Shown here: one piece after another, positions 37,228 to 59,539 of the stretch
Position numbering within the stretch: position 1 is the stretch's first letter
Layout: the number at the start of each line of letters is the position of its first letter
DNA from: a virus
Length of the DNA: 64,000 nucleotides
Virus record (IMG/VR): IMGVR_UViG_3300011113_000257
Location: 1-64,000 of that record
Strand: one strand, 5' to 3'
Position numbers and translations under genes: made by a program
Notes under the pieces: model-generated
What the model was told of the DNA's origin: nothing
The model's input: the letters and a program-made list of their open reading frames with translations, nothing else
The model's database searches: none

Positions 37228-37271
37228 TGTTTTATCAAGTTGCAAGGGGCAACTGATAGAAGGAGACCAAG

Positions 37272-37478
37272 ATGTCTAACTACCTAACCAAGTCGTATGA
37301 GATTCGCGCCTACACTTTAATGGGCGAGTTCATCTGCGTAGAGTGTGGAGAAAGTCTTTTCAGAAACTCTGACGATGACCCTCAGCCAGTGTTCAGTGAC
37401 CAGTGGAACACTCAGGAGATGCTTGAGACTTATGGGCTAGAAATACCTTGCTTCGCCTGTTACGAAGAAATACGATAG
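37272..37478 (+). CDS. Small Zn-ribbon protein
   Basis: CxxC...CxxC; own promoter, SD (AGGAG) and terminator. Confidence 0.75.
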   Translation: MSNYLTKSYEIRAYTLMGEFICVECGESLFRNSDDDPQPVFSDQWNTQEMLETYGLEIPCFACYEEIR

Positions 37479-37490
37479 CCAAAGGCATAA

Positions 37491-37523
37491 GCCCCTACAC
37501 CGCAAGGTGTGGGGGTTTATCTT
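37491..37523 (+). terminator. Intrinsic terminator with GCAA tetraloop
   Basis: cccctacacc-gcaa-ggtgtgggg followed by a T-rich run. Confidence 0.75.
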
Positions 37524-37647
37524 TGCTTACCGCAGATAGGCATAACCGCAACACGCCAAAAACTTTTTACCGTATGACTTGCATTAACCTGACTTTTCTG
37601 GAATAATCATCTTATGAGGTTGCAAGGGGCAACCGCGAGAGGAAGCA

Positions 37648-37959
37648 ATGACCGTAGAAAAACTAATCGAAGAATACCTAGAGGTTCTAAACGATAAGGC
37701 ACTAACTATCTGCACTACCGCATACGGAGTAAGCAAGGGACGTAAGTTTGCAAAGGTACTGGCACACGGTACTCAGACATCAGTACACGCTTTCGTAAAC
37801 CTAGAGAACGGTGACGTAATCAAGCCAGCAACATTCAATGCACCGCAGAAAAATTCTGACGGTACTTTTTCAGTCCGCTACAACTTAGTGGATGACGAAT
37901 CACGCAAGGCACTATTCGCAGAGTTAGACCCGTATGGTCACTACCTTTACGCAAGGTAG
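37648..37959 (+). CDS. Conserved phage hypothetical protein
   Basis: SVHAFVNLENGDVIKPATFNAP..VRYNL motif; own promoter, hairpin, SD and terminator. Confidence 0.75.
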   Translation: MTVEKLIEEYLEVLNDKALTICTTAYGVSKGRKFAKVLAHGTQTSVHAFVNLENGDVIKPATFNAPQKNSDGTFSVRYNLVDDESRKALFAELDPYGHYLYAR

Positions 37960-37967
37960 CCAACTAG

Positions 37968-38003
37968 AAAAACCCCCCCACCGCAAGGTGAGGGGGCTTT
38001 CTT
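37968..38003. terminator. Bidirectional terminator with GCAA tetraloop
   Basis: A-run, C-run, accgcaaggt, G-run, T-run, between convergent genes. Confidence 0.75.
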
Positions 38004-38015
38004 ATTTACGAAAGA

Positions 38016-38285
38016 TTAAACGCTTTCGCTTTTCTTGCCTTTTGACTTTGTATCAACCGAGTTAAACACTTCATCAATTTCTGCATCAGACAAGTCACCG
38101 TCATTAATGTAGGCGCGTGATAAGCCCTCGACTACGGTAGCGACTCCACCGACTCCAGCCATAAGAATTGCTTGCCAGAGTTCGACTCCAGCAATAGTTC
38201 CAGCACCGATAACCGATAGACCTGAAGCAGAGAATACGGCAAGAATACGCAAGGTAATCTTTCGTATCTTATTAGTTACTGTCAT
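38016..38285 (-). CDS. Small membrane protein (holin-like)
   Basis: Probable start MTVTNK; two hydrophobic segments; charged C-terminus. Confidence 0.55.
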   Translation of the reverse strand: MTVTNKIRKITLRILAVFSASGLSVIGAGTIAGVELWQAILMAGVGGVATVVEGLSRAYINDGDLSDAEIDEVFNSVDTKSKGKKSESV

Positions 38286-38387
38286 AGTGTGTCGTCCTTC
38301 CAAAATTTCACACGGTGCTAAAACAATTTCAGCACCCAGCCTTACGAGTTTATCGCAGGTATTGGGTGCTGAAATTATTTGTGGCAA

Positions 38388-38663
38388 CTACTTAACAATA
38401 ATTCTCATTGCTGTCGGTGCAGTTACTTCAACAACTGGTGCAGGTGCAGGTTCGACAACTGGTTCAATAATTGGTTCTGGTTCTGGCTCAACCGTAGGTT
38501 CAACTACGACTGGTTCAGGTGCAGACTTCCTACCTTTGTATGTCTTTGCAACTGGTTCTTCTACCGTAACTTCCGCTACTGGTTCGACAACTAATTCAGT
38601 CACGGACTCTTCGAGTTCCGCAACTTCATCAACTGTCACTTCAAGTTCTGGATTCAGTTCCAT
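38388..38663 (-). CDS. Acidic Glu/Pro/Val-rich disordered protein
   Basis: Probable start MELNPELE after AAGGA. Confidence 0.6.
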   Translation of the reverse strand: MELNPELEVTVDEVAELEESVTELVVEPVAEVTVEEPVAKTYKGRKSAPEPVVVEPTVEPEPEPIIEPVVEPAPAPVVEVTAPTAMRIIVK

Positions 38664-38719
38664 AGTATTCCTTTGTTGAGGTTGTGCCTTGTATCTATTG
38701 TAAGACACAACTCAACTTC

Positions 38720-38872
38720 CTAGTTCTCTCTAATAGAGAGTAACGCAAGGCTAACCGCGTTAAGACCGAAAGCAAGTGTTAGCAAGTCTTTGCCTAACAT
38801 TGCCGAAACTACTGCCAATACCCCCGCGCCGAGCGAGGCTACTGCCACCCAAATAATTTCAGTTCTATTCAC
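38720..38872 (-). CDS. Two-TM miniprotein (50 aa), not in ORF track
   Basis: GTG start; MNRTEIIWVAVASLGAGVLAVVSAMLGKDLLTLAFGLNAVSLALLSIREN*. Confidence 0.55.
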   Translation of the reverse strand: MNRTEIIWVAVASLGAGVLAVVSAMLGKDLLTLAFGLNAVSLALLSIREN

Positions 38873-39059
38873 TAGAAACCTTTTTCGGGCGAGTTCGACC
38901 CTTTAACCGAGTAGACGAGTCACGCAACTCAACGCCTTCAGCCCAAACTGCCTTCCGCGCTGTACGGTAGCAAACATCTAGTTCACTAGCAATAGTTTCA
39001 ATAGACTTACCTTCTAGGTACATTTCGCTTGCTTGCTTACTAATTTTCTTGACAATCAT
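38865..39059 (-). CDS. Small HTH DNA-binding protein
   Basis: YLEGKSIETIASELDVCYRTARKAV..GVELR. Confidence 0.75.
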   Translation of the reverse strand: MIVKKISKQASEMYLEGKSIETIASELDVCYRTARKAVWAEGVELRDSSTRLKGRTRPKKVSSE

Positions 39060-39107
39060 TATTTACTTTTCCTTTTCTTTTTCTATGTAGGGGCTTGCCC
39101 TACCCCC

Positions 39108-39266
39108 TTAGGGGTAGAGCAAGTCTTTACAACTTTGAGATAACTCAACGGTATCCACCTTGCATCTATCTGGCGTAGCCAAGTTCTCTGCTACTACAAA
39201 CATCGCAATCAGTATTACCGCAATGAATACGTTCCGAACACGTTCTCCGCGCTTAGTAAGTTTCAT
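39108..39266 (-). CDS. Small single-TM protein
   Basis: MKLTKRGERVR followed by a TM segment; AAGGAG SD; promoter TTGACA-N17-TAAGAT at 39305-39333. Confidence 0.65.
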   Translation of the reverse strand: MKLTKRGERVRNVFIAVILIAMFVVAENLATPDRCKVDTVELSQSCKDLLYP

Positions 39267-39307
39267 CTTGCTCTCCTTTTCGTTGAACCATTCAACTAAG
39301 GACAATC

Positions 39308-40252
39308 TTACGCACTAACCTGCACTTTGTCAAGTCCAGACACGCGAGTCTTTTCATAGACGTTAGCCACTACTTCAGCCCAGATAGACGGCGTATGCGT
39401 ATGAGGTTGATAACCACCCGCACCGCCTATCAACACGCGCCCTTGAGCGTAAGTGTTAGCAATGTCCGCAACTATGTCTGAGGCGTATGCATAGCCGTCA
39501 TAGTCAAATTGCAAACTAGCAAGCGGGTCAGTCTTGTGACCATCCGCGCCAGTAGCCAGTAGCACAACATCAGGTTGATACTTATCCGCAAGTTCACGGA
39601 TGTCATCCATAGCCTGAGCAAACTCCAAGTTCCCAGCACCACGAGGCAACGCCCAGTTGTAAACTGAATTTTTTTCGTCGTGACCACTACGCCCAGTTCC
39701 AGGGAATACAGTCCCGTCGTGAATACTCATAGTTGGAATGTCCGTATGGTAAAGCAATGCCTCAACTCCGTCACCGTGATGAGCATCCCAGTCAATGTAC
39801 ATAGTCTTTAGACCTGCTTCACCGAACTTCTTTCCAGCCCAAGCAATGTCATTAAACACGCAAAAACCACTTGAGTAGTCATAGTGAGCGTGATGCTTTG
39901 CACCTTGAGGATTAAAGCCAACTTGCACTTCTCCAGCAATCATCTTCTCAACTAGCCGAGCCGTACCTGCAAACATCTTGAGCGCAGTAAGACCAAGTTC
40001 TGGTTTTGTTCCTGCCCACTCATTCGATAAGCCAAGTAGCACTTCTTGAATGTAGGCAGGGTGATGCACTTTATGTAGTTCTTTAATGTCCGCATCCGTG
40101 CTTTTAGGCGCAACAATCTTTACGCTATTTTTGCCTAACTTGTCAATAAGCAAGTCGGTAGCAAGCAATGCGCGTTCTGGATTAGTAGGGTGACCTTCAC
40201 CTAACTGCCAATCCAAATAATCATTTCCGTATGCAATGTGTAATTTTGTCAT
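39308..40252 (-). CDS. Zn-dependent histone-deacetylase-family (AcuC-like) deacylase
   Basis: HPTNPER, GAKHHAH, SGFCVFND, YIDWDAHHGDGVE, GADGHKTDPL, GGAGGY. Confidence 0.92.
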   Translation of the reverse strand: MTKLHIAYGNDYLDWQLGEGHPTNPERALLATDLLIDKLGKNSVKIVAPKSTDADIKELHKVHHPAYIQEVLLGLSNEWAGTKPELGLTALKMFAGTARLVEKMIAGEVQVGFNPQGAKHHAHYDYSSGFCVFNDIAWAGKKFGEAGLKTMYIDWDAHHGDGVEALLYHTDIPTMSIHDGTVFPGTGRSGHDEKNSVYNWALPRGAGNLEFAQAMDDIRELADKYQPDVVLLATGADGHKTDPLASLQFDYDGYAYASDIVADIANTYAQGRVLIGGAGGYQPHTHTPSIWAEVVANVYEKTRVSGLDKVQVSA

Positions 40253-40759
40253 TTAGTCATTTCCTTTCTTCTCTAAATCTAGTAACCACTTTTCGTAGTC
40301 TTTGTTGCAAAGTACAAGAACACTTCTTGACTGTCGCAAGTATGTGATACTTTCCTCAGCCGAGTAGCCTCTACTCATTAGCACTAATGCGCTAACAAGT
40401 CCAGACCTATTCAGCCCAGACAAGCAACGAATCAGAACACTCTTTCCCGCGTCAAGTTCGTAGTTCACAAAGTCCACTAAAAATTTCAGTTCTTCTTCGT
40501 TAAACTCCGCAACACTTCCATCTTCAAAGTGTTGCCGAAACTCTCTAACGTGCCAGTCCACGGGATTACTCCAAGCGTGTAGTGTCACCACCGTATCAAA
40601 GTCCTGCTTTGTAATCCGTGGTTCTATCTCTGGCTTTCCAACAATGTCATCTTCATCAGTTCCGCCCATAAATAAATTGGGATAAACTTCTGTCCATAAC
40701 TCTTTTGGCATCAGTTCCGCATAAGTTCCGAGTCCTTCTTCCTTTTCGTATTTTGTCAT
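40253..40759 (-). CDS. Dual-specificity / PTP-like protein phosphatase
   Basis: CX5R active site VLIRCLSGLNRSG; EVYPNLFMGG N-terminus. Confidence 0.88.
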   Translation of the reverse strand: MTKYEKEEGLGTYAELMPKELWTEVYPNLFMGGTDEDDIVGKPEIEPRITKQDFDTVVTLHAWSNPVDWHVREFRQHFEDGSVAEFNEEELKFLVDFVNYELDAGKSVLIRCLSGLNRSGLVSALVLMSRGYSAEESITYLRQSRSVLVLCNKDYEKWLLDLEKKGND

Positions 40760-40829
40760 TTTTTCCTTTCCCTTGAAGAATAACAGGTTAATAACATTTT
40801 GTCAAATTGACGGGAAAAGATAAAACCCT

Positions 40830-40883
40830 GTTATCAAATCGTTATCAAATGGATTAGGAAATGTCAGGGTAATGCGCTATGCT
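40830..40883 (+). promoter_or_regulatory. Promoter with upstream GTTATCAAATC direct repeat
   Basis: GTTATCAAATCGTTATCAAAT, then TAGGAA-ATGTCAGGGTAATGCGC-TATGCT; the same 21-mer occurs inverted at 57976-57996. Confidence 0.65.
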
Positions 40884-40924
40884 TAGTACATAAGCCAACA
40901 AGGGGTTGGTGAAAAGGGGTAACA

Positions 40925-41167
40925 ATGAATTGCACTCAATGTGAGAGAAAGGCTTACTCCGTAGGTCTTTGTACTGCGCACTATATGGCTAACTATCGGG
41001 CAAAGAAAAAATACGGCATACCTACCAAAGTCTCTAAGCGACACGGTGGCTGTGTAGAGGCTGGTTGTGAGCGAGAGATTTACTCAAACTCCATTTGCAG
41101 GACACACTATATGAGGGTCTATCGCCGTAGGGTAAAGATACGAAATAAAGAAGGTCTAAAGATTTAG
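40925..41167 (+). CDS. Small protein with two Cys/His (C..C...C..HY) Zn-binding repeats
   Basis: CTQCERKAYSVGLCTAHY and CVEAGCEREIYSNSICRTHY. Confidence 0.75.
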   Translation: MNCTQCERKAYSVGLCTAHYMANYRAKKKYGIPTKVSKRHGGCVEAGCEREIYSNSICRTHYMRVYRRRVKIRNKEGLKI

Positions 41168-41347
41168 AATCCTATACACGGGCTCACAAGGGTCGCCACC
41201 TTCGTCAGCGTATTCCTGTTCTTCAGGGGTTAAGTAATCCCAACCACTATCGTGTACCGCGCAATACTGCTCGCTAATCCACCCTTTTGTTCTGCCAAAC
41301 AGTATCCACTCCGCGCGTTCATCCCATTCTTCGTCTTGCATCTGCAC
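41156..41347 (-). CDS. Hypothetical protein
   Basis: GWIS..YCAVHD...GGDPC motif. Confidence 0.6.
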   Translation of the reverse strand: MQMQDEEWDERAEWILFGRTKGWISEQYCAVHDSGWDYLTPEEQEYADEGGDPCEPVYRILNL

Positions 41348-41358
41348 CCCTAAAAATT

Positions 41359-41919
41359 TCAGTTATCTTTGTACTGTACCGCAATGTGGATAGTTCCGCC
41401 AGTACCTGAATCCAAGTAAGACGAAATAGTTATGGCTTCTTTTAGATAAGTCTTTGCTTCCTCGACCGTAACTTTAGTCCTGACCATAGAATGCAATGCG
41501 CCAAGCGCGAATGATGAGCCACTACCAATACCGTAGATACCTGCAACATCTCTTGCCCAGCAGTAGTCATCATCAATCTCGTAGACAACACCATTAACGC
41601 AAAGGATAATGTTAAACTCTTGGTTTCCGTCTTTTGCGTAACCATTTGTTTCAAAGTAGCCCCTGATTACTGGAATTACTTTAGTAGAAACAAACCTGTC
41701 AAGTTTAACTCCACTTAAGTTTTCCGCATCAGGTAAAGGAATGTCCGCAAGTAAGTTCACAGCCCTCAAGTCTCCTGCAGCACCTATGAGATAGTTCCCG
41801 TTCTTAGATACTTTCTTTATCCCACTTGGTAAAAGATAAACTCTGTTGTCTGATGAAATTTGAGAGTCAAACCCAACAACCGTAAATCCGTCTCCCTGAA
41901 TTGCTGCAATAGTTGTCAT
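41359..41919 (-). CDS. Proteasome beta/HslV-like Ntn-hydrolase protease
   Basis: N-terminal MTTIAAI (Thr nucleophile), GFDSQ, K, GAAGD, GIGSGSSFALGAL, DSGTGG. Confidence 0.85.
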   Translation of the reverse strand: MTTIAAIQGDGFTVVGFDSQISSDNRVYLLPSGIKKVSKNGNYLIGAAGDLRAVNLLADIPLPDAENLSGVKLDRFVSTKVIPVIRGYFETNGYAKDGNQEFNIILCVNGVVYEIDDDYCWARDVAGIYGIGSGSSFALGALHSMVRTKVTVEEAKTYLKEAITISSYLDSGTGGTIHIAVQYKDN

Positions 41920-41936
41920 TAGAAAAGATTTCAGTT

Positions 41937-42203
41937 CTAGACTTCGTAGTCAATCGCGTCATCCCAGAGCAGGTCTTTAAGTTCATTTTCATACTTTGCT
42001 GAGTTCCAACCATTAGTTTTTTCCGAGATGTCTTCCTCATCAACAATCGAATCTAAAGACAAAACTGCCGTGTAGCCGTCATCCTCAAACATAATAATTA
42101 ACTTAGTGTCATCTCTTTCCGCGTCATCAACGATAGCAACAACAAAGGACTCGCCCGTACGATTAGTGTGGTACGCGCTCTGGAGAATTTCTAGTCTGCT
42201 CAT
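41937..42203 (-). CDS. Hypothetical acidic protein
   Basis: ORF track; co-oriented. Confidence 0.6.
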   Translation of the reverse strand: MSRLEILQSAYHTNRTGESFVVAIVDDAERDDTKLIIMFEDDGYTAVLSLDSIVDEEDISEKTNGWNSAKYENELKDLLWDDAIDYEV

Positions 42204-42252
42204 AGCAAAAACATTACCGCATCCTTAGAAAGGCTATTTTTGCTTAAAAAAC

Positions 42253-42483
42253 CTACTTAAAAACAGTAGTGAGCCTGTCGCTTAGGTTTACTATCTTGAC
42301 TATCTTGCTAGTGTTGTCTGGATTAAGTTCCCTAATCAACGCACTAGCCTTTGGATTATTGACCGCACTAAGTTGCTTATGGGCGTAGGCAATAGCCAGC
42401 CCCAAAGAGGTTTGAGTTCTACTCTCGAACGGAGGCTTTATTTCTTTGCCCTTCGAGGTCATTAGTGATACTGAATACTTCAT
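42253..42483 (-). CDS. Hypothetical protein, likely leaderless
   Basis: TTGACA-N16-TAGACT ends 6 nt before the ATG; no SD. Confidence 0.6.
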   Translation of the reverse strand: MKYSVSLMTSKGKEIKPPFESRTQTSLGLAIAYAHKQLSAVNNPKASALIRELNPDNTSKIVKIVNLSDRLTTVFK

Positions 42484-42518
42484 ACCTTTAGTCTACCTAA
42501 AAGATTTCATTTGTCAAG

Positions 42519-42713
42519 TTAATCAAAATACTCAATAACTACCGCGCCCACGAAAGAAACCGCGCCAACTATAAGGGTTGCTACCAAGTAAGTAGGCGTT
42601 ATCACTACTGGCTTTAGCAGACCGATAAACATAAGTTGTAGTTCTAGTAGTGCTAAAGGCAATGAGCCAATAGCAACAAAAGTTAAAACATCCCGTAAGT
42701 GGAATAGAAACAT
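42519..42713 (-). CDS. Small membrane protein
   Basis: Two hydrophobic segments; GGAGG SD. Confidence 0.6.
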   Translation of the reverse strand: MFLFHLRDVLTFVAIGSLPLALLELQLMFIGLLKPVVITPTYLVATLIVGAVSFVGAVVIEYFD

Positions 42714-42716
42714 CTC

Positions 42717-42857
42717 TTAGACCTCCCACTCTCTGTAGCAATCTTGGCAAACCCAATCGAGGGTTATCCAATCGGTGCTTGACGGTGAAACATTAAAACC
42801 ACCGCGAACTGAATCTCCGCACTGTGGACACTGATGTGATTCCTTAAACTTTAACAT
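42717..42857 (-). CDS. Zn-ribbon miniprotein
   Basis: MLKFKESHQCPQCG...CQDC; AAGGAG SD after AAGGG hairpin. Confidence 0.65.
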   Translation of the reverse strand: MLKFKESHQCPQCGDSVRGGFNVSPSSTDWITLDWVCQDCYREWEV

Positions 42858-43204
42858 CTTGCTCTCCTTTTTATCGCCCCTTGCGATAGTTCTATCATAA
42901 CACAAGTCTCTGACCTTTGTCAAGTTAAACGCTAGACGCGCCACCGAAAGGGGATAAGGTGACGCGCCTAACATTTATGAGTGGGGAGAAAGGGGGGGCA
43001 ACCCCACTCGTATTCGGAGCATAGGGAGAAGGGAGAAAACCCTCGCTCTACGAACTCCTCTACTTTAGCATAAAAAAATTTCAGTTATGCCTCCGTGTCG
43101 GAAAATTTAACAATCCCCACAAACTGACTTACTCGAAACCTTTTTCGAGTCAAGCCCAAACCTTTTACCGCATCTCCAACAATTAGTAAAGATAGTCACT
43201 ACCC

Positions 43205-43429
43205 TCACTCCCCAATCTCTGGAATGTCGTAGTCGTTCTGCCAACCGCACTTAGGGCAAGTCCAAACACCGCGCCCCCAGTCGTCAAAAGATACTTCCTC
43301 TGTACCCTCAAACTTGCAGTCAATCTCCGCGCCTGACTGAAACTCAATAATGCCTTTGCACTCTAGGTCATCAATCTCTGCTGAATCCGCGTAGAATCCT
43401 GAACCTCTTAGTGAACCTTCGTAACTCAT
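43205..43429 (-). CDS. Small Zn-binding protein
   Basis: C...C...CPKC; AAGGGA SD. Confidence 0.7.
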   Translation of the reverse strand: MSYEGSLRGSGFYADSAEIDDLECKGIIEFQSGAEIDCKFEGTEEVSFDDWGRGVWTCPKCGWQNDYDIPEIGE

Positions 43430-43497
43430 TTTGTTTCCCTTCTTCTATCGCCCCTTGCGATAAATCTATTTAACCACATAATCTGACTAATGTCAAG

Positions 43498-43671
43498 TTA
43501 CTTGATAACTGTGCCTGTCCAACCCTCTGGAATTGAGTATTTAGTTTTTAGTGCCGTGTGAAAAGTGTCCACAACTATCTGACAAACACCGTCTAGTATC
43601 TCGTCACTCATTCCGTCAAGGTATGTCCGCAAGTTTTCCTGCAACTGTTCTTGCAATTCAAAAGTATTCAT
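43498..43671 (-). CDS. Hypothetical protein (57 aa), not in ORF track
   Basis: MNTFELQEQLQENLRTYLDG...; AAGGAG SD. Confidence 0.6.
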   Translation of the reverse strand: MNTFELQEQLQENLRTYLDGMSDEILDGVCQIVVDTFHTALKTKYSIPEGWTGTVIK

Positions 43672-43740
43672 CTTGTTCTCCTTTCAAGAGTAAAGTTCCC
43701 CAACCCTAAATTTCCAAAACATCTAGGGGTGGGGAATCCT

Positions 43741-43935
43741 TTATTTGTCGTTGATACCTAACAAAGCGAAAATTTCATCTTCGTTCAAGACAGTAACCTT
43801 GTCGCCACTATCATCAACAATTTTTACGCTAGTTACACGGTAAGAGTTAGCAACCAAGTCACGAACTTCTTGCGCCGTGTTAGCGGTAAAACTGTACTCG
43901 TTATCTTTCGACTTCATTGTTACGTTGTAAGCCAT
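43741..43935 (-). CDS. Hypothetical protein (64 aa)
   Basis: Start MAYNVT after AAGGGAG; the track's longer start runs through the ncRNA candidate. Confidence 0.65.
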   Translation of the reverse strand: MAYNVTMKSKDNEYSFTANTAQEVRDLVANSYRVTSVKIVDDSGDKVTVLNEDEIFALLGINDK

Positions 43936-43993
43936 TTCGTTCTCCCTTCTTGGCTCTACCCTTCCCGCACTTTGCGGAAAAGTTTTCAGTTTA

Positions 43994-44135
43994 TGAAGTA
44001 GGTAGGTGGCTCTCTCAACCACCTGTATGCGCTTCCCCACGCTTCCTATTCGGCTACCTACTTCAGTATTGACTGGCGAACTACGCACCGCACTCCAGTT
44101 GTAGTTTTCTTACCTAGTGCAAGACCAGTCAAGTC
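43994..44135 (-). ncRNA. Candidate structured ncRNA (pseudoknot domain plus tRNA-like cloverleaf)
   Basis: Stems 44132-44125/44076-44069 and 44065-44055/44004-43994; own promoter at 44159-44187. Confidence 0.5.
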
Positions 44136-44188
44136 TTTCTCTATTTAGTTATGACCCTAGTCTATCATACTAGGTTTGCTTTCGCAAG

Positions 44189-44267
44189 TCCCAAGAGTAG
44201 GAATCGAACCTACCGTGCCAAAGCGAGTGATTTACAGTCACCTTCCCCACCTTGAGGAATCCTTGGG
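44189..44267 (-). tRNA. trnY: tRNA-Tyr(GTA), atypical D arm, no encoded CCA
   Basis: Acceptor CCCAAGG/TCTTGGG; anticodon arm GGTGA-CTGTAAA-TCACT; long variable region; T arm GTAGG-TTCGATT-CCTAC; promoter at 44287-44315. Confidence 0.75.
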
Positions 44268-45030: not shown

Positions 45031-45157
45031 TTGAAACCCCTTTAGGTTTAGTATCAAGACCCCTTGCCTTGATGAATCAAGTCTATCATACCTACCTGAC
45101 ATTTGCAAGCACATAAGAAAACCCCCTCCGTAGAGGGGGCTTTCCAAAGGGGTCGCG

Positions 45158-45467: not shown

Positions 45468-45582
45468 TTTTCTCCCTTTCGTGGTATTTCCACTACCTAA
45501 AGTAAACCACTTTATCTGACAAAAGTCAAATCAAATTAAATCCCGCGTGTCCCTAAAAAATTTCAGTTTTACGTTCCCGCAC

Positions 45583-46366: not shown

Positions 46367-46476
46367 TTTGTTCTCCCTCTATCGGTTACTTCCTGCAACC
46401 TGATAAATCAAGTATAACACACTAACCTGACAAATGCAAGTTAGGTGCGCCAGCCGTAGCCAGCGCACCCGTAACC

Positions 46477-46821: not shown

Positions 46822-47144
46822 TTGCTTCCCTTTCTCTGTGGTACTTCCACTAAAAAATAATAACACATCTCCCTGACATTTGCAAATTATCTTTTCCGCG
46901 TGTCCCCTGACCTAAAAAATTTCAGTTATCTAACTCAGCGCAAAAAGAACCCCGCACTTTCGCACGGGGAACTTTTTGTTTGGTTAAAGTATTTCTCCTA
47001 CTGTTGCTTCCTCGCAAGGGTCGCAAATCCAACCCTCTACTCCGTGCTGGTCAAAAGGAATCATAGTGTCCTTGCATTCAACGCATACAACGTATTTTGT
47101 CCCGTCTGTAGACGTAGCAACTAAACTATCTAATGCGTTCATCT

Positions 47145-47851: not shown

Positions 47852-47901
47852 TTCTTATCCCTTCCGCAAGTAAGCCCTTCTTACTCGCTGTATCTATAAT
47901 A

Positions 47902-48490: not shown

Positions 48491-48594
48491 TTTGTTCTCC
48501 TTTTTGTTTTCGCGGGCTATCCGCTTAGTAATACTTTATCATACTATTTTGTTTGGTGCAAGTAGTAGGGGGCTTGCGCCCCCCACCGCATTTG

Positions 48595-48765: not shown

Positions 48766-48839
48766 TTTGGTTTCCCTTTCTTGTAAGGAGTTTCCTTACA
48801 TTTCTAATAGTACGGACTTTCTTGACATTTGTCAAGTGA

Positions 48840-49452: not shown

Positions 49453-49585
49453 TTTTGTTTTACCCCTTTTGAGTTATCTACCGCGCCTTGCGGTATGTAG
49501 TAATCGTATCATACCTTTATGACATTTTCTGTATTTCGAGAAAATAAACCCCGCCCGTAGGCGGGGCTTATCTCGAGTATCCGCA

Positions 49586-50101: not shown

Positions 50102-50269
50102 TTGGGTTTCCCTTCTGTAAGCAAGTCCCTCTTGCTCACTCTGTGAGTTTATCATACTAGCCTGACATTCGCAACTCAAACGAAAAACTTTTTTCGTGTC
50201 GCCATAACTGAAATTTTTTAAGTAGGCAACAAAAAATCCGCGCAATCTTCCGCGCGGACTTTCTTTTGT

Positions 50270-50536: not shown

Positions 50537-50655
50537 TTTGTTTCCTCTCTTTCGCAACCCCTTGTTGCTAGTACCTAGCGTACCCTACTTCCCTGACATT
50601 TGCAAGTTGAAAAAGGGGCGAGTTTCCCCGCCCCCTTTTCGTGCGCCCTCCGCGC

Positions 50656-51129: not shown

Positions 51130-51297
51130 TTTGTTTTCCCTTCCGTAAGCAAGTCCGTCTTGCTCACTCTGTAAGTTTATCATACTAGCCTGACATTTGC
51201 AACCTGAACGCGAAACTATTTTTTCCGCGCCCGCGCCAGAAAAAATTTCAGTTTTCAATTTGAGATAAACGCGGATTTCTCCGCGCTCTCTCGTTTG

Positions 51298-52279: not shown

Positions 52280-52373
52280 TTTGTTTCCCTTTCTTAGAGT
52301 GAGTCCCTCTCGCTCTATGATAAGTATACGCCCCTAGCCTGACATTTGTCAAATCAGGGGCGCACACCGCGTG

Positions 52374-52610: not shown

Positions 52611-52777
52611 TATTTCTCCATTCCGTGTCCAACGTGGACTAATCTAATTTCTGGCTCGCCGACTTCGATTCCCCAGCCATTCTTTAGTAGTTCTAATGCT
52701 TCTTCTTCGCTAGTGCAAAGTTTAAGATTCTTAGAGTCAATCTCTAATGTCTTGATTACTTGAAACTCGTAACGCAT
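52610..52777 (-). CDS. Hypothetical protein
   Basis: Start MRYEFQ after AAGGG hairpin and SD. Confidence 0.6.
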   Translation of the reverse strand: MRYEFQVIKTLEIDSKNLKLCTSEEEALELLKNGWGIEVGEPEIRLVHVGHGMEK

Positions 52778-52958
52778 TTGGTTTCCCTTCCTTAGCAAGC
52801 CCTTCTTGCTAATAACTCTATGATACATCAATACCCTGACATTTGCAACTTGAACACGAAATTATCTTTTCCCGTGCCTTCGCTGAGTTCCGCATAAAAA
52901 ATTTCAGTTTTGTGAAACCAAGAAACCCCTAGCCTTTCGGCTAAGGGCATCTTTTGGA

Positions 52959-53135
52959 TTAGGCGGTGATTAGTCCCTCGTCTATCAAGGTGCTGGCAAT
53001 TCTGCCGTAAGAACCTTGCAGTTGCCACGCTAGTCGCGTATCAACTAGTTGCTGAAACAAGTTAATTGTTTCTTCTCTGTCAAGATTACCTTCTTCGAAC
53101 TCGATGATTAAGTTCGTGATGTCGTGTAGTGACAT
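52959..53135 (-). CDS. Conserved small phage protein
   Basis: FQQLVDT.LAWQLQGSYGR motif. Confidence 0.7.
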   Translation of the reverse strand: MSLHDITNLIIEFEEGNLDREETINLFQQLVDTRLAWQLQGSYGRIASTLIDEGLITA

Positions 53136-53227
53136 TTGCTTCCCTTTCGTATTCGCCGTACTTCGGCTTATGTAGTAAGGATACACTAAACCCCTGACAT
53201 TTGTCAAGGGCTTAGTGTCCCGTGTCT

Positions 53228-53656
53228 TTAGTCTTCTTCTTCGTACTCATCTTCGTCTTCGTCTTCGTCTTCGTCTTCGTCTTCACGGCATCTGTCGCAG
53301 ATTGAGTCATAGTCCGCGCCAGACTCGCCACATAGTTGGCAAAACTCGTCTTCGTATCCCTGTGGGATTATGCTTTCGTATCCCTCGTTAGGGTCGTCCT
53401 CGTTAGTTGCTACTGATTGCACAAACTTTAGCCCGCAAGAGCCTTCGTACCAACGCTTGACTAGGGTAAGCATTTCGTCAGGGGTTGAGTCGGTAACAAG
53501 GAAACTTCCGTCCTCGCCATAGCCCCACTCTGCACTCTGCTTGACTTGCTGGTCGTCTTTCAAGATGTAAATCTTGTGACAACCATCAAACGAGATGCCT
53601 TTGGCTTCGTCAAGTTCTGCCTTAACTTCGTCCCAGATGTCTTGGAAAGTAGTCAT
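53228..53656 (-). CDS. Hypothetical protein with CxxC pair and acidic (ED)n tail
   Basis: FDGCHKIY, WYEGSCGLKF; GTCTTC tandem repeat. Confidence 0.7.
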   Translation of the reverse strand: MTTFQDIWDEVKAELDEAKGISFDGCHKIYILKDDQQVKQSAEWGYGEDGSFLVTDSTPDEMLTLVKRWYEGSCGLKFVQSVATNEDDPNEGYESIIPQGYEDEFCQLCGESGADYDSICDRCREDEDEDEDEDEDEYEEED

Positions 53657-53889
53657 TTTGATTTCCCTTTCTATCAGTAAGCCTTTCTTGCTGATAAAAC
53701 TATCATACCACACTATCCTGACATTACCTAATCGGGGCTTTAGCGCGTGTCGCAGAAAAAATTTCAGTTATCTAAAATTACGAAACCCGTACCAAAAAAA
53801 TTTCAGTACGGGCTTCGCTTAGAAACTGTCGGAAGGCTGACACACGCTGGAAGGACGATACCCCCCGACAGGGCTTATGGGTTATTCAA

Positions 53890-55698
53890 TTATCCGTTAC
53901 GGTTTCCCATAGCGGTTAGTGCTTTCGCACACGCTTGTCCGATAGCGTTGGACGCTTCCGTTGGAGAAGCCACACCGCTTAACGGCTCTACCGTTGTCCC
54001 CCTTAGGAGACTTCTGGCACTTGAACCGTTGTCGAACGGTATCCATACTACCGCCACGCCGTTGCTCTCACACTGCGACACCCAACTCCGAGCCTTTTGG
54101 GTCTCGTCGTAAGTGTACACGCCGTCGGATACCACGACTAAAAGCCTAGCACCGTCACCGTTGAGCAGGTTCAACTCGCCGTCTATTGCCTTGAACGCCT
54201 TGTCAAACTTTTCCGTACCGTCTGGTGCTGTGTACACCGTTACGTCCGTTAAGTGCTGACCAGACTTGAGCGTAGGGAACACGTCGTCGCCGTAGTACAC
54301 CATCGCGCACTTGCCTTGGACTCGCCGAGTTGCTTCCGACATTACCCACGCCGTTGTCGCCATCGGTTGCATCGCCGAATTCATCGAACCGCTAATGTCT
54401 ACCATCACGCCGACCTTTAGTGTTGGCTCGTCCGTTGTCTTACGGACTCGCTTACGCCAAGGTTGCGCCGTTGGTTGCATACCTATCGCCTTGTGTGCTT
54501 CGTTCTGCATAGCCGAGCGAGTTCGTAGCCGTCCACCGGGAACAATGCTACGCACTTCAACAACATCGCGCTCGCGATACTTTGCACGCTCTAATGCGCT
54601 CGCCACTTTCACCGCGCTGATACGCTCGTCTGCCGTAGGCTTACGAACCTCTGTTGCATAACTACGAGTACGAGTAGATGCTGATGGACCAGTACCTCGC
54701 CCGAAAACTTCTTGAGCAACTTTAACATTCTCACGACTTTGCTTTGCACTGTCCGCGCGATTCTTAACTTCCTCTTTCCATTCCTCTGACTCCTCTTGGT
54801 CTGCAAGTTCGGAGTAGTTAGACACCGCAACATTTTCAGATGCTTCTTTCAACTTCTCAAGTAACTCTTTTAATGCTTCGCCAACTTCAGATGTAGACTC
54901 ACCACTTCCACCAGAAGTACTTTCACTACCAGAATTATCCTCGCCACGTTCGTTTGCAAGGTCGCGAACAATCTGTGCCCACTCACGCGCTAATGGATAA
55001 ACAGGTTCCATGTTTCGATGGTCTGTGTGTGTAATGAAACGCTCGATAACACTGCATAACTTTTCAACAGTTTCGTTGCCTAAGTATTCCTCTATAAATT
55101 CTGTAACCTCTAGAACATCATCACGCTCTAAAATTCCACCAATGATTCGACCATGCACTAGTCCAACTAAAGTTGCAATGTTTGAAACACTACCCTGTGT
55201 CAAATCCTCTGACTCAAAATCTGCAATAACAATTTCCATTGCACTTGAGCATAGAAATGCGCGATACCGAGCATCAAGCAAAATACCTTGTGCTTCGATT
55301 CGTGATTCCTCAAGAAGCATTAGTGCTTCGTACTCGTCTGACTTTAATGCTTCGTAAGCAGACTCTAAACTCCACTTCGAGAAACGAGCGTGAAATGCTT
55401 CGTGCATTATCGCGCCAGTTGCCTTTGGAAATTCGTACTGCGTTGAGCGTTGATTAATGTCGCTAATGTGTTCTGGCTTAATGCCAAACCCGAAAGCAAT
55501 TTCTGTGTTCACTTCAATTTCTGCAATCGCTGGCTTGTAGCACGCTGGCGCATTGCTACCTGCAACAGGAGATGCAAGTCCAACTAAATCACCGCGACCT
55601 GCGATTGAGTTTGCTAGTTGCGCAATCTGCGAACCAACTGCATACCATTCTGGATGTCTTTCACCAGAAGTCTTACTGTGTGTGTCAATGTGTGCCAT
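53890..55698 (-). CDS. HEXXH metallopeptidase-like plus VWA domain protein (CobT/MoxR-partner type)
   Basis: HEAFH...LEESRIE; MIDAS motif DISGS; VVSDG. Confidence 0.85.
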   Translation of the reverse strand: MAHIDTHSKTSGERHPEWYAVGSQIAQLANSIAGRGDLVGLASPVAGSNAPACYKPAIAEIEVNTEIAFGFGIKPEHISDINQRSTQYEFPKATGAIMHEAFHARFSKWSLESAYEALKSDEYEALMLLEESRIEAQGILLDARYRAFLCSSAMEIVIADFESEDLTQGSVSNIATLVGLVHGRIIGGILERDDVLEVTEFIEEYLGNETVEKLCSVIERFITHTDHRNMEPVYPLAREWAQIVRDLANERGEDNSGSESTSGGSGESTSEVGEALKELLEKLKEASENVAVSNYSELADQEESEEWKEEVKNRADSAKQSRENVKVAQEVFGRGTGPSASTRTRSYATEVRKPTADERISAVKVASALERAKYRERDVVEVRSIVPGGRLRTRSAMQNEAHKAIGMQPTAQPWRKRVRKTTDEPTLKVGVMVDISGSMNSAMQPMATTAWVMSEATRRVQGKCAMVYYGDDVFPTLKSGQHLTDVTVYTAPDGTEKFDKAFKAIDGELNLLNGDGARLLVVVSDGVYTYDETQKARSWVSQCESNGVAVVWIPFDNGSSARSLLRGTTVEPLSGVASPTEASNAIGQACAKALTAMGNRNG

Positions 55699-55835
55699 CT
55701 CTGGCTCCTTCCTTTTGTACGCCCCTTTGACGTACTCTGTGAGTTTATCATACCTTCTTGATATTTCCAAATTGAAGGGTGGGGAGTCGGGAAACACTCA
55801 CGAAAACCGACTCCCCTTAGCAAGGATGAAAGGGA

Positions 55836-56867
55836 CTAAATCCTTGCTGGCTTGTATTCCGCACCAAACACGCGAGACAGAACATCTGCCACGATTGGTC
55901 TGTCCATCTCTGGTGCAGAAGCAAGTAAGTTCGAGATACCAAACGGAACCCCGAATGTTGTAACGATGTCGCGGAACGCTAAAAGTTCGCGCATCTGTGG
56001 AGCCCACGAGACTTCACCAGACTCTTGTTTCTTAGCAAGATTCTGCGCAACAGTAACGAGGTTGCTAGGTACACCTAAGGTGCGAGCAAGTGACCAGTCA
56101 GTTGCCATCTCTGCTTGAACAGTAAAGCGAGATAGTAAGGCTTCTGAAAGTCGTACTCCCGGAGCATTAGGGTTAGTTGCACCCACAACATAAAAGTCAG
56201 GGTGAACCTTAACAGTACCTCTGTCAGGATTAGCAGTGACAGTAATTTCGCCACGTCCATCCATCACGCCATACAAACCTGAAAGTTGCTTAGGGTCAAT
56301 CAGACCAATCTCGTCAATGAACAAGACTGCACCTTCCTCTACTGCTCGCACAAGTGGACCATCTACCCACTCGAAACCACCAGCAGGATTCTGTACGAAC
56401 CCACCAAGGAAGTCTGACATTTCGATGTCAGCAGTTCCAAGTACTGTGTACATATTTCCACCAAACGCTGCTTCGACTAATGCAGTCTTACCAGTTCCCG
56501 GTGCGCCATAAAGCAACGCGAACATTGGCGAGCCAACTTTGTCTGTGACAGACAAGGTAGTTGCTTCACGAGCCTTGCGTAATGTTGCAACATCTTGATG
56601 TTCACCCCAAGTACGAGCGTGGTACACACTTCCATTTGGACGAATGTATTGACTACTACTTGATTCAAGTGTGACACCTGATGTTGTAATTGGTGTCGCT
56701 ACGCGAGCAACGCGAGGTGCGCGTTCTACGAAACGACCTTGTGGTAAAACCTGCGAGATTACTCTCATAGATGCTTCTGTTGATACTGACTGCGCAACCA
56801 TGTCGTCTAACATGGAAGTGAATTCAGTTCCCCACTTTGAATAAATTTCATTTTCTTTGATGCTCAT
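55836..56867 (-). CDS. MoxR/CbbQ-type AAA+ ATPase
   Basis: GAPGTGKT, WVDGPLVRA, LFIDE, ATNP, LSEALLSRF. Confidence 0.92.
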   Translation of the reverse strand: MSIKENEIYSKWGTEFTSMLDDMVAQSVSTEASMRVISQVLPQGRFVERAPRVARVATPITTSGVTLESSSSQYIRPNGSVYHARTWGEHQDVATLRKAREATTLSVTDKVGSPMFALLYGAPGTGKTALVEAAFGGNMYTVLGTADIEMSDFLGGFVQNPAGGFEWVDGPLVRAVEEGAVLFIDEIGLIDPKQLSGLYGVMDGRGEITVTANPDRGTVKVHPDFYVVGATNPNAPGVRLSEALLSRFTVQAEMATDWSLARTLGVPSNLVTVAQNLAKKQESGEVSWAPQMRELLAFRDIVTTFGVPFGISNLLASAPEMDRPIVADVLSRVFGAEYKPARI

Positions 56868-56883
56868 AATTTTCAGTCCCTTT

Positions 56884-57351
56884 CTACGCTGTGAACATTT
56901 CTGGATAAGATAATGCAGTTCGAGTCTGGTTGATTCGATGCACGACCTTAGTTGGAGTCTTACCTTCTGTTACATCTGTCAAGTCTTTCTGTGAAACTTC
57001 CACAAAAAATGGCTTGCCAATAAGTACGCTACTAATTGAAACGCGCTTCATAAACCACGCTAGTGTTTGAAGTCGCTCCTCGCGATGGTTCTCTGATGTA
57101 ACCCCTGTTGCTGGGTCTACGAGACTACGCTGAAGTGCTTGCACCTTCCATTGTTTCTTTGGCTGTGATGCCGAAAGACGACGATAGTAGACACGCGCTG
57201 TCGAAAAATTTCCAAGTTCATTCCAACCATCTGGAGTAATGAACATCTGAAAAATCTGTTGGTATTCATTCTTGAATTCCGCGTACAAGGCTGTGCCCTG
57301 TACTTTCTTTTCTGGGTCTGTAAGCAGACCAAGAGGTGTTTCTGTTGACAT
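56884..57351 (-). CDS. Hypothetical protein (first gene of the AAA operon)
   Basis: Promoter at 57398-57426; AAGGA SD. Confidence 0.7.
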   Translation of the reverse strand: MSTETPLGLLTDPEKKVQGTALYAEFKNEYQQIFQMFITPDGWNELGNFSTARVYYRRLSASQPKKQWKVQALQRSLVDPATGVTSENHREERLQTLAWFMKRVSISSVLIGKPFFVEVSQKDLTDVTEGKTPTKVVHRINQTRTALSYPEMFTA

Positions 57352-57475
57352 AGTGAGTATTTCCTTTCTTTATGTCTTTTGTCCCTGTGACATTTCTAGT
57401 TTAGCATAACGCTATGATGGAGTCAAATCGGGGTAGGAGTATGTCTAAGGAGACCTACCCCGACCTGACTTCTAA

Positions 57476-57808
57476 CTACTTAGCGACAATGATGTCGTAA
57501 GTAGAAACCTTTGAACAGGTTTCGTATGCTTCTGGATAAACTTCTTTCAGAAGCGTTGAGTCCACATTGGTGCGTGAACGTGGTGCAAGTTCCACTACTG
57601 GAAGCCCTGCGACAGTACCAACCTTGGCAGAACCAATTAGGTCACGAATTGCGCTGTCAAGTTCTGACTTTGCTTTTTCGAGTTCCTTGATTGCAAGTTT
57701 TGCGTTAGCAAAATCTGCAAGCAGGTTCGCGATGTTGGTGTTGTCCAATTCAACGGTGGACGTTTCCGTGACAACCTGTGTTGTCGTTACCTGTGTGCGT
57801 ATGCTCAC
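57476..57808 (-). CDS. Coiled-coil protein resembling YqaJ-type C-terminal region
   Basis: GTG after AAGGGG; VDSTLLKEVYPEAYE motif. Confidence 0.55.
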   Translation of the reverse strand: MSIRTQVTTTQVVTETSTVELDNTNIANLLADFANAKLAIKELEKAKSELDSAIRDLIGSAKVGTVAGLPVVELAPRSRTNVDSTLLKEVYPEAYETCSKVSTYDIIVAK

Positions 57809-58122
57809 TTTGGCGATTCCCCTTTCAAGGAAAGTTCGATAGACCATCTAACGAACAGTTCTAACTTTACGCCCTACACCTGACATTTGTCAAATCGAGC
57901 GTTTCCACCCCGATTTCTCGGGCTGTTTTCGTTCATAGAACCAATGTAACACATTACCCTGACATCCGCAAGTTTATTTGATAACGATTTGATAACGGAC
58001 CGGGAACTGAAATTTTTTAGTTCCGGGTTGTTGAAGGCGGGCTCCAATAAAAAATTTCACTTTTGGGCAAAAAGAAACCCCCGTTCGAAACTCACTGGTT
58101 TCGATTTAACGGGGGTTGGTCT

Positions 58123-58311
58123 TTAGAGTTCTTGCTCCCACTTTTCGATGTCAAACATTTCCCAGATTTCATCATCTGTGAAATTTTCCTTCAACCAAAT
58201 AGCGGTGCGCTTTTGGACTACTGGGTTTTCGTCTACTGGCTTAGCAGTTCCGAAGATGCTACCCATAAGGGCTTGGTATGCGTGTGCGTTTGCTTCATGC
58301 GGTTTGTTCAT
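58123..58311 (-). CDS. Hypothetical protein
   Basis: ATGA coupling. Confidence 0.6.
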   Translation of the reverse strand: MNKPHEANAHAYQALMGSIFGTAKPVDENPVVQKRTAIWLKENFTDDEIWEMFDIEKWEQEL

Positions 58312-58772
58312 ACTCCTACGGTAACACGAGGCACTGACATTTCTTCAGGTGTCCAAATGTAGGGGAGGTCACTTGGCGTATCGGGAAAAAATTCAGAGTA
58401 GTACTCAGGGGCTTTGCGCAAGAGATTCGAGCGGTGCGATTCGTGGAACCGTGAGTTCCCGATGAACCAAGGCAAGCCTTCGTACCGCTTACCTTGCACC
58501 GTTAGGTCTCGCATCTTCTCGATGAAGTACGGTAGCAGGTTGTCGACATACCCTCTCCGTTTCCACTCCAGCGACATTATTGAACCGTAGTACGCGAGTG
58601 CGAACTCGTGCCCACGCCACATCTTGGTCGCAGGGTGGTTGACCCAACCCGTTGTCTCGCCGTTGAGCGCCATCAGTATTTGCTTGGTCTCAACCCGTTG
58701 CTTCCCGAGCCGTCGGTAGTCCAATACCCTCGCCGTCTTTTCAAAATCGGCGTATGGCAGGAACGTCTGCAT
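58308..58772 (-). CDS. MSMEG_6728-family pyrimidine-dimer DNA glycosylase / endonuclease V-like protein
   Basis: MQTFLPY, LD.RRLGKQRVE, HPATKMW, HESHRSNLLRK, DLPYIW. Confidence 0.85.
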   Translation of the reverse strand: MQTFLPYADFEKTARVLDYRRLGKQRVETKQILMALNGETTGWVNHPATKMWRGHEFALAYYGSIMSLEWKRRGYVDNLLPYFIEKMRDLTVQGKRYEGLPWFIGNSRFHESHRSNLLRKAPEYYSEFFPDTPSDLPYIWTPEEMSVPRVTVGV

Positions 58773-58957
58773 TAGCCCTCGCCGTTCTCTCGAACTAGCG
58801 CGATGGCTCTCGCCATGCCTGCAGACCAACCGTCGTTAAACGCGACATCCGTCTCGTCCATTTCCTCAGCGTCCGTCATGTCTTCTTCGGTTACCCGTTC
58901 CCACTCCTCCATTAAAATTTCTAATAGTGTCATGTGGTCACGCCCGCTAACGCCCAC
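58772..58957 (-). CDS. Hypothetical acidic protein
   Basis: TAATG coupling to the next gene. Confidence 0.55.
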   Translation of the reverse strand: MGVSGRDHMTLLEILMEEWERVTEEDMTDAEEMDETDVAFNDGWSAGMARAIALVRENGEG

Positions 58958-59169
58958 GCCTTCTTGAGGTCGCGGTCGAAGTCGCGTTGCAACTTATCCC
59001 ACGCCGTTTCGTCAAAAAGGATTGGGTGCGCCTCTTGCTTATTTCTGCTAAGCACTCGCCGTATAAAAGATTTCAGTTCCGTGTAGTTCATGTTCTTGCT
59101 CCTCCTTTGTTTTGCGGGGCACGCCGTGTGCCTCGCCGTCGTGATGTATTAACTTTATGATAAAAGTTT

Positions 59170-59454
59170 CTAGATGTCAAGCGCGTACTCTGGGAGTTCC
59201 ATCCCTGCCCCAACTAACGCGCGCCGTATTAAACCTTGCTGACGCGAAGTTGTCTGCGAGTATTTATCTACGTTCAGATAAGTAACCTGACGTTTTTCTG
59301 TGTTTATACTAGCCATCCGTGTTGAGTAAGAGTAGATGTCGTAGATGATGTCGCCACCAGCGTCGCACCATTTCGAGGCTCTCATGCTGTGACCGTGCTT
59401 GAATGGTTTGAATGCTGGAATAAATTCTTCTGCAATTTCTTTGTAACTAGGCAT
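59170..59454 (-). CDS. Conserved phage hypothetical protein
   Basis: IYSYST...KYSQTTSRQQ; full cassette. Confidence 0.7.
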   Translation of the reverse strand: MPSYKEIAEEFIPAFKPFKHGHSMRASKWCDAGGDIIYDIYSYSTRMASINTEKRQVTYLNVDKYSQTTSRQQGLIRRALVGAGMELPEYALDI

Positions 59455-59539
59455 TTTTATTTCCCTTCCCGTTGATGTGTCTCACCAACAAGAACCATTC
59501 TATCATACCAACCTGACATTCGCAACTTAAGGCACGCCA

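Follow-up and report, generated by a model that had tools for sequence, protein, structure and literature searches.

The DNA analysed here (the window) comprises bases 1-64000 of the single 110,857-bp virus record IMGVR_UViG_3300011113_000257, for which a completeness of 83% is estimated. Between 37.2 and 59.5 kb, this window carries 25 short hairpins of one kind, situated in the 5' leaders of early genes between a promoter and a Shine-Dalgarno (SD) sequence, and these leader hairpins are the subject of the present analysis. The window encodes a portal, a major capsid protein, collagen-like fibres and a giant protein of 3827 amino acids (aa), and beyond those window genes the record also holds two WhiB genes, DNA polymerase A, ThyX and a primase; the G+C content of the phage is about 45%. 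The capsid protein shares 66% identity with its counterpart in Actinomycetia phage DSL-LC01 (lake water), with remoter matches in Microbacterium, Gordonia and Mycobacterium phages, and DNA nearly identical to the region occurs in river, lake, drinking-water and estuary metagenomes (eight studies). Together, these capsid relatives and the presence in freshwater metagenomes identify the phage, as far as its sequence can tell, as an uncultured freshwater actinophage. No RNA polymerase gene was found in the phage, and the sole recognisable part of the giant protein (20885-32368, - strand) is a PolC-type 3'-5' exonuclease domain, with no similarity to polymerases.

For comparison, we used a set of 72 related viral contigs fetched with a 635-aa vWA-like protein. 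Among these, a relative with 94% identity (L002) and a group at about 57% (L003, L005 and L062) possess the same promoter type and the same kind of leader hairpins as the phage described here. A megablast search with 8 kb against the phage collection returned zero matches. Among the public sequencing runs that carry the phage, no RNA run is listed, and one run that we guess may be RNA holds a relative at 90-95% identity, in the form of contigs only.

As listed in Table 1, nine of the hairpins carry the loop AAGGG on stems of 5-9 bp, and a direct scan recovered all nine where a preliminary description of this DNA had placed them, with the stems it had given; its other loops (AGGGA, ACGGA, AAAGG, AAGGC, AGGAA and AAGTA) were likewise all located. 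The nine AAGGG hairpins are built on seven different stems, three lying on the + strand and six on the - strand, and AAGGG is in every case the coding-strand sequence, whichever genome strand that is, and the hairpin sits between the promoter and an SD sequence with start codon that follows at most 22 nt past the hairpin. Genome-wide, AAGGG loops closed by a stem of at least 5 bp were observed nine times, as compared to an average of 1.6, and never more than 6, in 200 dinucleotide shuffles, and AAGGG with its complement is the top pentaloop of the genome. The hairpin precedes only the first SD sequence of a transcription unit, so that roughly 25 of the region's 58 or so genes have one, and it is present behind 17 of the 24 ATGTCAG-type promoters described below and behind eight other promoters. 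The earlier claim that it stands before most early SD sequences is therefore overstated at the level of genes, and holds for the first SD sequence of most early transcription units. Several of the promoter-leader cassettes are obvious duplicates.

Table 1. Leader hairpins and associated features. Positions refer to the window unless a contig is named.
Feature	Position	Strand	Stem arms	Loop	Remark
Leader hairpin	37238..37254	+	AGTTGC/GCAACT	AAGGG	covariance model R1, 49.1 bits
Leader hairpin	37618..37634	+	GGTTGC/GCAACC	AAGGG	
Leader hairpin	39282..39296	-		ATGGT	or triloop TGG
Leader hairpin	40894..40910	+	GCCAAC/GTTGGT	AAGGG	one G.U
Leader hairpin	42872..42888	-	TATCGC/GCGATA	AAGGG	
Leader hairpin	43444..43464	-	TTTATCGC/GCGATAGA	AAGGG	
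Leader hairpin	43960..43982	-		AAAGT	
Leader hairpin	45053..45073	-	ATCAAGGC/GTCTTGAT	AAGGG	one G.U
Leader hairpin	45481..45493	-	GTGG/CCAC	AAATA	AGATG in L002
Leader hairpin	46384..46400	-		AGGAA	
Leader hairpin	46838..46850	-	GTGG/CCAC	AAGTA	
Leader hairpin	47866..47888	-	GCGAGTAAG/CTTACTTGC	AAGGG	
Leader hairpin	48512..48524	-		ATAGC	
Leader hairpin	48782..48800	-		AAACT	or triloop AAC
Leader hairpin	49479..49495	-		AAGGC	
Leader hairpin	50117..50139	-		AGGGA	
Leader hairpin	50554..50568	-	GCAAC/GTTGC	AAGGG	
Leader hairpin	51145..51167	-		ACGGA	
Leader hairpin	52296..52316	-		AGGGA	conserved internal C.A mismatch
Leader hairpin	52792..52812	-	TTAGCAAG/CTTGCTAA	AAGGG	
Leader hairpin	53155..53167	-	GCCG/CGGC	AAGTA	
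Leader hairpin	53673..53695	-		AAAGG	internal C.A mismatch; AAGGA in the L002 orthologue
Leader hairpin	55717..55735	-		AAAGG	precedes the 635-aa vWA-like gene
Leader hairpin	57834..57856	-		ATGGT	or TGG; one mismatch
Leader hairpin	59466..59494	-		AGACA	
Representative early promoter	52813..52848	-			TTGCAA, ATGTCAGG in 17-nt spacer, TATCAT, 7 nt to stem
Representative purine-only single-stranded leader	52775..52791	-			SD GGAAGGGAAA and start codon
Small-RNA-like element in relatives	L003:11316-11456; L005:17087-17227; L007:20893-21034				

Each hairpin is preceded by a promoter of host type, consisting of TTGACA or TTGCAA, a spacer of 17-18 nt and TAnnnT, often with TG before the latter. 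In 24 early promoters (42.9-59.9 kb on the - strand, and 40854 on the + strand), the spacer starts with (A)ATGTCAGG directly after the -35 box, an element which may be a regulator site or the mark of a promoter class. Two divergent promoters on the + strand (~37196-37215 and ~37577-37596) carry its reverse complement (CCTGAC) in the same spacer.

The position of the hairpin relative to these signals is narrowly defined. For the 39 A-first pentaloop hairpins of the clade, the distance from the -10 box to the first paired base is 4-12 nt with a mode of 5-8, and 30 of the 39 stems start 4-8 nt past the box. Between the stem end and the SD sequence lie 0-11 nt, the loop is more than 15 nt away from the start codon, the SD sequence is never inside the hairpin and no U-run follows, so that the hairpin is neither an SD-masking structure nor a terminator. 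The likely transcript start is indicated by sister promoters of the same class that lack a leader, in which an ATG follows after exactly 6 nt past the -10 box and opens a reading frame of 110-157 aa (59893, - strand; G000 72857, which equals L074:8857, - strand; L002:5891; L002:20341); one of these frames is kept from its first residues in L002. Leaderless messages are frequent in actinobacteria, and these promoters probably yield such messages. Position +1 would accordingly be the seventh nucleotide after the -10 box, most stems would start at -1 to +3, and we infer that the hairpin is 5'-terminal on its transcript.

The loop differs from the stem in its constraints. Among the 40 promoter-proximal pentaloops of the clade, 39 begin with A, followed by A/G, G/A, mostly G and A/G at positions 2-5. 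Overall, purines make up 93% of the loop bases (A.51, G.42, C.03, T.03); the unpaired leader after the stem is 85% purine with C at.09, and the stems are unbiased. Because the purine richness extends beyond the loop, the loops are partly an instance of a general purine rule for unpaired leader bases. Composition by itself is nevertheless insufficient to account for them, with AAGGG forming 9 of the 25 loops where less than 1% would be expected at leader composition. The commonest loops are also the top 5-mers of the SD windows of early genes (AAAGG, AAGGG and AGGGA), as compared to AAGGA and AGGAG in the rest of the genome, and this match of top words marks the loop as a copy of the early SD core. 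Loop changes between close relatives stay within the same set (AAGGG to AGGGA, AAAGG to AAGGA), which suggests, from this pattern of drift, that selection acts on a GG-containing purine loop and not on one exact word.

Comparison of orthologous leaders revealed that whole stems are exchanged while an A(A/G)GG(G/A) loop is retained. The leader at 50554 reads GCAAC-AAGGG-GTTGC in the phage, GCAAC-AGGGA-GTTGC in L002 and GAGGTT-AGGGA-AACCTC in L003 and L005. At 59466, GTTGGTG-AGACA-CATCAAC corresponds to GTTGATG-AGACA-CGTCAAC in L002, the pairing surviving two wobble changes, and at 48512, GCGG-ATAGC-CCGC stands against TATCGC-AAAGG-GCGATA in L002. In addition, one leader has a C.A mismatch that is conserved in three lineages, and the leader of the vWA-like gene retains a promoter-proximal hairpin even in relatives of about 50% identity, with unrelated stems and other loops. 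A first MAFFT alignment of 40 leaders, in which a third of the loops were out of register, was dropped and replaced by an alignment of 21 rows; in the latter, pairing is nearly always kept at the six innermost pair positions, each of which is realised by 2-5 types of base pair, the rows having been chosen as folding and the count being illustrative and not independent.

A covariance model built on these 21 leaders (R1) matched the window exclusively between 37 and 60 kb, save for a marginal match at 14381 (13.1 bits, E 0.19), and gave no meaningful match in the remaining 47 kb of the genome (64-110 kb). In the relatives, its matches were strong in L002, L003, L005 and L062 and marginal in others. 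Across the 72 related contigs, 246 hairpins lie 3-12 nt past a promoter-like -10 box and before an SD sequence; among these, pentaloops form the largest class with 109 members, 81% of which begin with A. A crude count of hairpins in all leaders of the 72 loci showed no overall excess (40% as compared to 41% in coding controls), the exceptions being the pentaloop class and certain lineages. The hairpin is not shared by phage DSL-LC01, whose early promoter differs and whose A/C-rich leaders are for the most part without structure. Taken together, the hairpin is real, under selection and family-wide in a clade of abundant phages. Its place in the transcribed leader and its constant polarity with respect to the gene on both genome strands are the main argument for its acting as RNA, which is very probable.

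These features are best accommodated, at a probability of roughly 55% in our estimation, by a 5'-terminal hairpin that would protect and insulate the messenger RNA and that carries an SD mimic in its loop. In this model, host RNA polymerase would initiate at promoters of SigA type, and the first 15-29 transcribed bases would fold into a stem of 4-12 bp with free sequence and a purine pentaloop, followed by a purine-only, single-stranded SD leader. In a first layer, the paired 5' end would guard the message against 5'-end-dependent decay, and the variable 5' bases would be sequestered in such a way that the SD sequence is kept open regardless of the downstream gene. An SD sequence that stays open whatever gene follows would suit cassettes that are shuffled between strains. 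In a second layer, the separately selected loop would act as a second, non-initiating mimic of a ribosome site, either through a contact of STAB-SD-like or standby type with the 30S subunit or its platform, or as a handle for a regulator of early messages.

In contigs from other water samples, parts of the early region that lie far apart in this phage are directly joined (43479/48837, 49578/50592-50622 and 46944/47274), and several of the junctions fall at or close to promoter cassettes. The junctions suggest that genes are shuffled between strains in a modular fashion.

The protective part of this proposal has well-described counterparts. Stem-loops at the 5' end are established stabilisers of bacterial messages (reviewed in PMC7509114), and both RNase E and RNase J are present in Mycobacterium tuberculosis, an actinobacterium (PMC7509114), which makes a protective role of a paired 5' end plausible. 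Mycobacterial RNase E cuts immediately 5' of cytidines, at sites concentrated in single-stranded 5' untranslated regions (PMC10641625), and the purine leader with its low C content fits an avoidance of such cutting. Two individual precedents resemble the element in part.

The E. coli ompA leader with its 5'-terminal stabiliser stem-loop was reportedly described by Emory, Bouvet and Belasco in 1992, and the B. subtilis aprE and ermC leaders and the T7 phi10 leader are further cases. Similar to these, the hairpins described here are short, presumably cis-acting, predicted from the leaderless sister promoters to begin within about 0-4 nt of the 5' end, followed by an open SD sequence and devoid of a terminator U-run. 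The known stabilisers are single cases in which the loop sequence is irrelevant, whereas here about 25 copies in one genome share a fixed, A-first, SD-like loop of 5 nt and, in the main, one promoter class. The second precedent is the STAB-SD of Bacillus thuringiensis cry3A and the polypurine 5' stabiliser of phage SP82, reportedly from the work of Agaisse and Lereclus in 1996 and of Hue et al. in 1995. There as well, an SD-like polypurine sequence near the 5' end lies too far from the start codon to initiate and exists besides the true SD sequence, and in the phage the top loops, which equal the top early SD cores, are likewise off initiating distance. The STAB-SD is single-stranded, pairs with the 3' end of 16S rRNA and is distant from the real SD sequence, whereas the mimic of 5 nt is here held in a hairpin loop 10-25 nt away. 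By analogy, the element would work like a 5' stabiliser stem-loop joined to a mimic of STAB-SD type.

Several observations weigh against this model. In B. subtilis, a stem-loop placed too near the SD sequence lowered stability, according to the account of Sharp and Bechhofer (2005) given in PMC7509114, and the hairpin here abuts the SD sequence. A loop of 5 nt is a poor base-pairing partner for 16S rRNA. Roughly one in four loops does not resemble an SD sequence (AAGTA, AAATA, AGACA, ATAGC and AAACT), and remoter relatives (lineage L050-L053) use AAAAN loops, so that the SD mimic is not universal. Moreover, 7 of the 24 promoters of the class lack an A-loop hairpin: three have unstructured leaders (44519, 47389 and 49044), one a leaderless reading frame (59928), two other hairpins, and the seventh (57971) a short ATG-initiated stretch that ends in a hairpin. 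As to the RNA level, the preliminary description had argued that the G-U pairs fit the mRNA strand; wobble pairs discriminate weakly between the strands (8 G.U as compared to 6 A.C in a symmetric count). The sets behind the count of pair types and the comparison of fold energies were selected for pairing on the sense strand and are hence biased; the fold energy favours the sense strand in 30 of 40 leaders (p=7e-5), a value which, coming from a set picked on sense pairing, is not counted as support.

The stretch at 57900-57971 (- strand) consists of a ATGTCAGG promoter, an ATG at +1 and a CCCGA-GAAA-TCGGG hairpin that runs straight into the next promoter, and the same arrangement is found in L002 (7817-7895). 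It could be a tiny leaderless reading frame or a small RNA.

The conserved loop may have a more specific meaning, and we tentatively consider that the SD-mimic pentaloop could be a dedicated tag by which one temporal class of messages is recognised by a specific reader. Candidate readers would include the 30S platform, an uncharacterised phage protein of the early or middle phase and the anti-SD small RNA of the phage. Should this be the case, the cassettes of promoter, hairpin and SD sequence would constitute a genome-wide post-transcriptional regulon in freshwater actinophages, and we know of no such regulon described for actinobacteria or their phages.

A related alternative, which we regard as unlikely, is a bipartite translational operator, in which a dimeric RNA-binding repressor, as yet a putative protein with CsrA-like logic and a T4 RegA-like role, would hold the GG loop together with the SD sequence 10-25 nt downstream and thereby shut off the early genes at a later stage. 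Such an operator would agree with the two copies of the purine motif in each leader, one in the hairpin loop and one at the SD sequence, at CsrA-like spacing, with the match of the AGGGA, ACGGA and AAGGA loops to A-N-G-G-A, with the selection of the loop on free stems and with the limitation of the element to one temporal class. It is harder to reconcile with the commonest loop, AAGGG, which has no GGA, and with the searches for a reader: none of the 59 early open reading frames (ORFs) has a CsrA, Hfq, ANTAR, CSD, KH or S1 domain, CsrA (PF02599) being absent from these ORFs and also giving no match at E<=10 when the genome, of which the record represents an estimated 83%, was searched in all six frames. 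A scan for arginine-rich windows, as in an N-like protein, yielded no convincing candidate (boxA was not searched), and the sole small protein rich in arginine and lysine resembles a DNA binder of histone type. This protein (61384-61599, - strand) is a very basic one of 71 aa with PAKKA-type repeats and resembles the tails of actinobacterial histone-like proteins.

It is also rather improbable that the loop has no specific reader at all, and that a nuclease-avoiding exclusion of pyrimidines, especially C, from the unpaired leader, combined with the common ancestry of the duplicated cassettes, explains its sequence, the stem alone being of importance. The purine richness of the remaining unpaired leader, the drift of loops within the purine set between close relatives (AAGGG to AGGGA, AAATA to AGATG), the AAAAN loops of other relatives and the duplicated cassettes all accord with this view. 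The excess of AAGGG over its expectation at leader composition does not, nor do the higher G content of the loops than of the leader (.42 as compared to.29), the loop length fixed at 5 and the nearly invariant first A. Furthermore, neutral drift predicts that loops change faster than stems, and the reverse is observed.

A phage small RNA could be a partner for the loop. The element at 42926-43075 (- strand) resembles a small RNA with an extended -10 box, three hairpins, of which the last is terminator-like, and a fold z-score of -5.5; each of its loops is rich in C and U and includes CCCUU(U)C, which is complementary to the early SD core. It is found in five relatives (L003, L005, L006-L008), where the loops are invariant and the stems covary. 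Docking of this RNA, by loops that would kiss the AAGGG loops and/or cover the early SD sequences, is in keeping with its conserved promoter- and terminator-like features and with CCCUU being the exact complement of AAGGG; however, the duplex predicted for the AAGGG pentaloop is weak (-5.4 kcal/mol) as compared to a mean of -13.4 for the SD region, which in turn is only about 1 standard deviation better than coding controls. These energies point to the SD sequence, and not the loop, as the better target, and we consider the hairpin very doubtful as a docking site. Past the MoxR-like gene, a further stretch (55781-55848, - strand) contains two strong hairpins, the first with a loop, UUAGUCCCUUUC, that is complementary to sequences of SD type.

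Least probable is an element acting at the level of DNA (a hairpin promoter for an N4-type virion RNA polymerase, an operator or a recombination hot spot for the shuffling of cassettes). In its favour, a virion-type giant protein of 3827 aa is encoded nearby, two hairpins pair better on the template strand and junctions in contigs of other strains lie at or near promoter cassettes. Against it, each hairpin is preceded by a complete -35/-10 promoter at fixed spacing, the giant protein matches only a PolC-type exonuclease domain and shows no similarity to a polymerase, the variable stems exclude a sequence-specific operator and AAGGG keeps the orientation of the gene that follows, whichever genome strand this gene is on.

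We also compared the element with other described structures. A search of Rfam returned nothing in the window at the gathering score and nothing overlapping a hairpin at E<=1, and no Rfam family covers the element. Our literature search found no description of the element, including for promoters and hairpins of freshwater actinophages, and the sole paper on the nearest named phage (DSL-LC01) is a genome description (PMC10611076).

Of the functions proposed in the preliminary description, a 5' nuclease shield and a standby SD sequence fit the anatomy best, whereas the boxB-like and CsrA-like readings fail on defining features. Sites of CsrA/RsmE share a GG-containing purine loop, a short covarying stem and a second copy at the SD sequence, but have a hexaloop instead of a pentaloop; the commonest loop here has GGG and, like AAAGG, is without GGA, which is confined to AGGGA, ACGGA and AGGAA (four hairpins in the genome). 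With this GGA-less loop and without a CsrA match in the early ORFs or the six-frame translation of the record, a CsrA site was rejected, and to our knowledge CsrA is lacking in actinobacteria. The boxB of lambda and P22 is similar in its purine-rich pentaloop, its stem of about 5 bp and its presence in early leaders; it has a G-first, GNRA-like loop, occurs once or twice per genome and does not lie against the SD sequence, and the A-first loops and the roughly 25 copies abutting SD sequences rule it out. Targets of ANTAR proteins consist of two tandem hexaloop hairpins, with A at position 1 and G at position 4, and an ANTAR protein to bind them; A1 and G4 are frequent in the loops described here as well, but the hairpins are single, have pentaloops and are accompanied by no ANTAR domain in the early ORFs, and this assignment was rejected.

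The remaining candidates differ in architecture. T4-type PeSL cassettes are repeated units of early promoter and stem-loop flanking small genes (PMC2839356, PMC4122927), and the apparent rearrangement of other strains at or near the cassettes resembles what is described for them (PMC2839356); however, their stem-loop is a G/C-rich terminator of upstream transcription, whereas the hairpin here is downstream of the promoter, in the leader, and has no U-run, which excludes it by the definition in PMC2839356. The ESAS of Cluster K mycobacteriophages is an actinophage inverted repeat immediately 5' of the SD sequence and start of many genes (PMC3203893), with conserved arms of 17 bp around a variable spacer of 4-13 bp (PMC3203893); the opposite pattern of variable arms and a fixed loop rules it out. 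An N4 hairpin promoter is ruled out by the full -35/-10 promoter before each hairpin and by the giant protein, as described above.

Elsewhere in the early region (39308-41919, - strand), genes encode an enzyme of the histone-deacetylase family, a dual-specificity phosphatase and a proteasome-beta-like protein.

If the model of a protective and insulating hairpin is correct, one small module would give about 25 unrelated and often shuffled early genes uniform messages that start alike, are protected at the 5' end and leave the ribosome site open, in a phage without an RNA polymerase of its own, and the hairpin insulators of synthetic biology would have a counterpart in nature. The selected loop raises the question of whether a mimic of the ribosome site recruits ribosomes or a regulator. 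Low-GC freshwater actinobacteria are abundant and difficult to cultivate, and the element would open a way to study mRNA decay and the initiation of translation in them.

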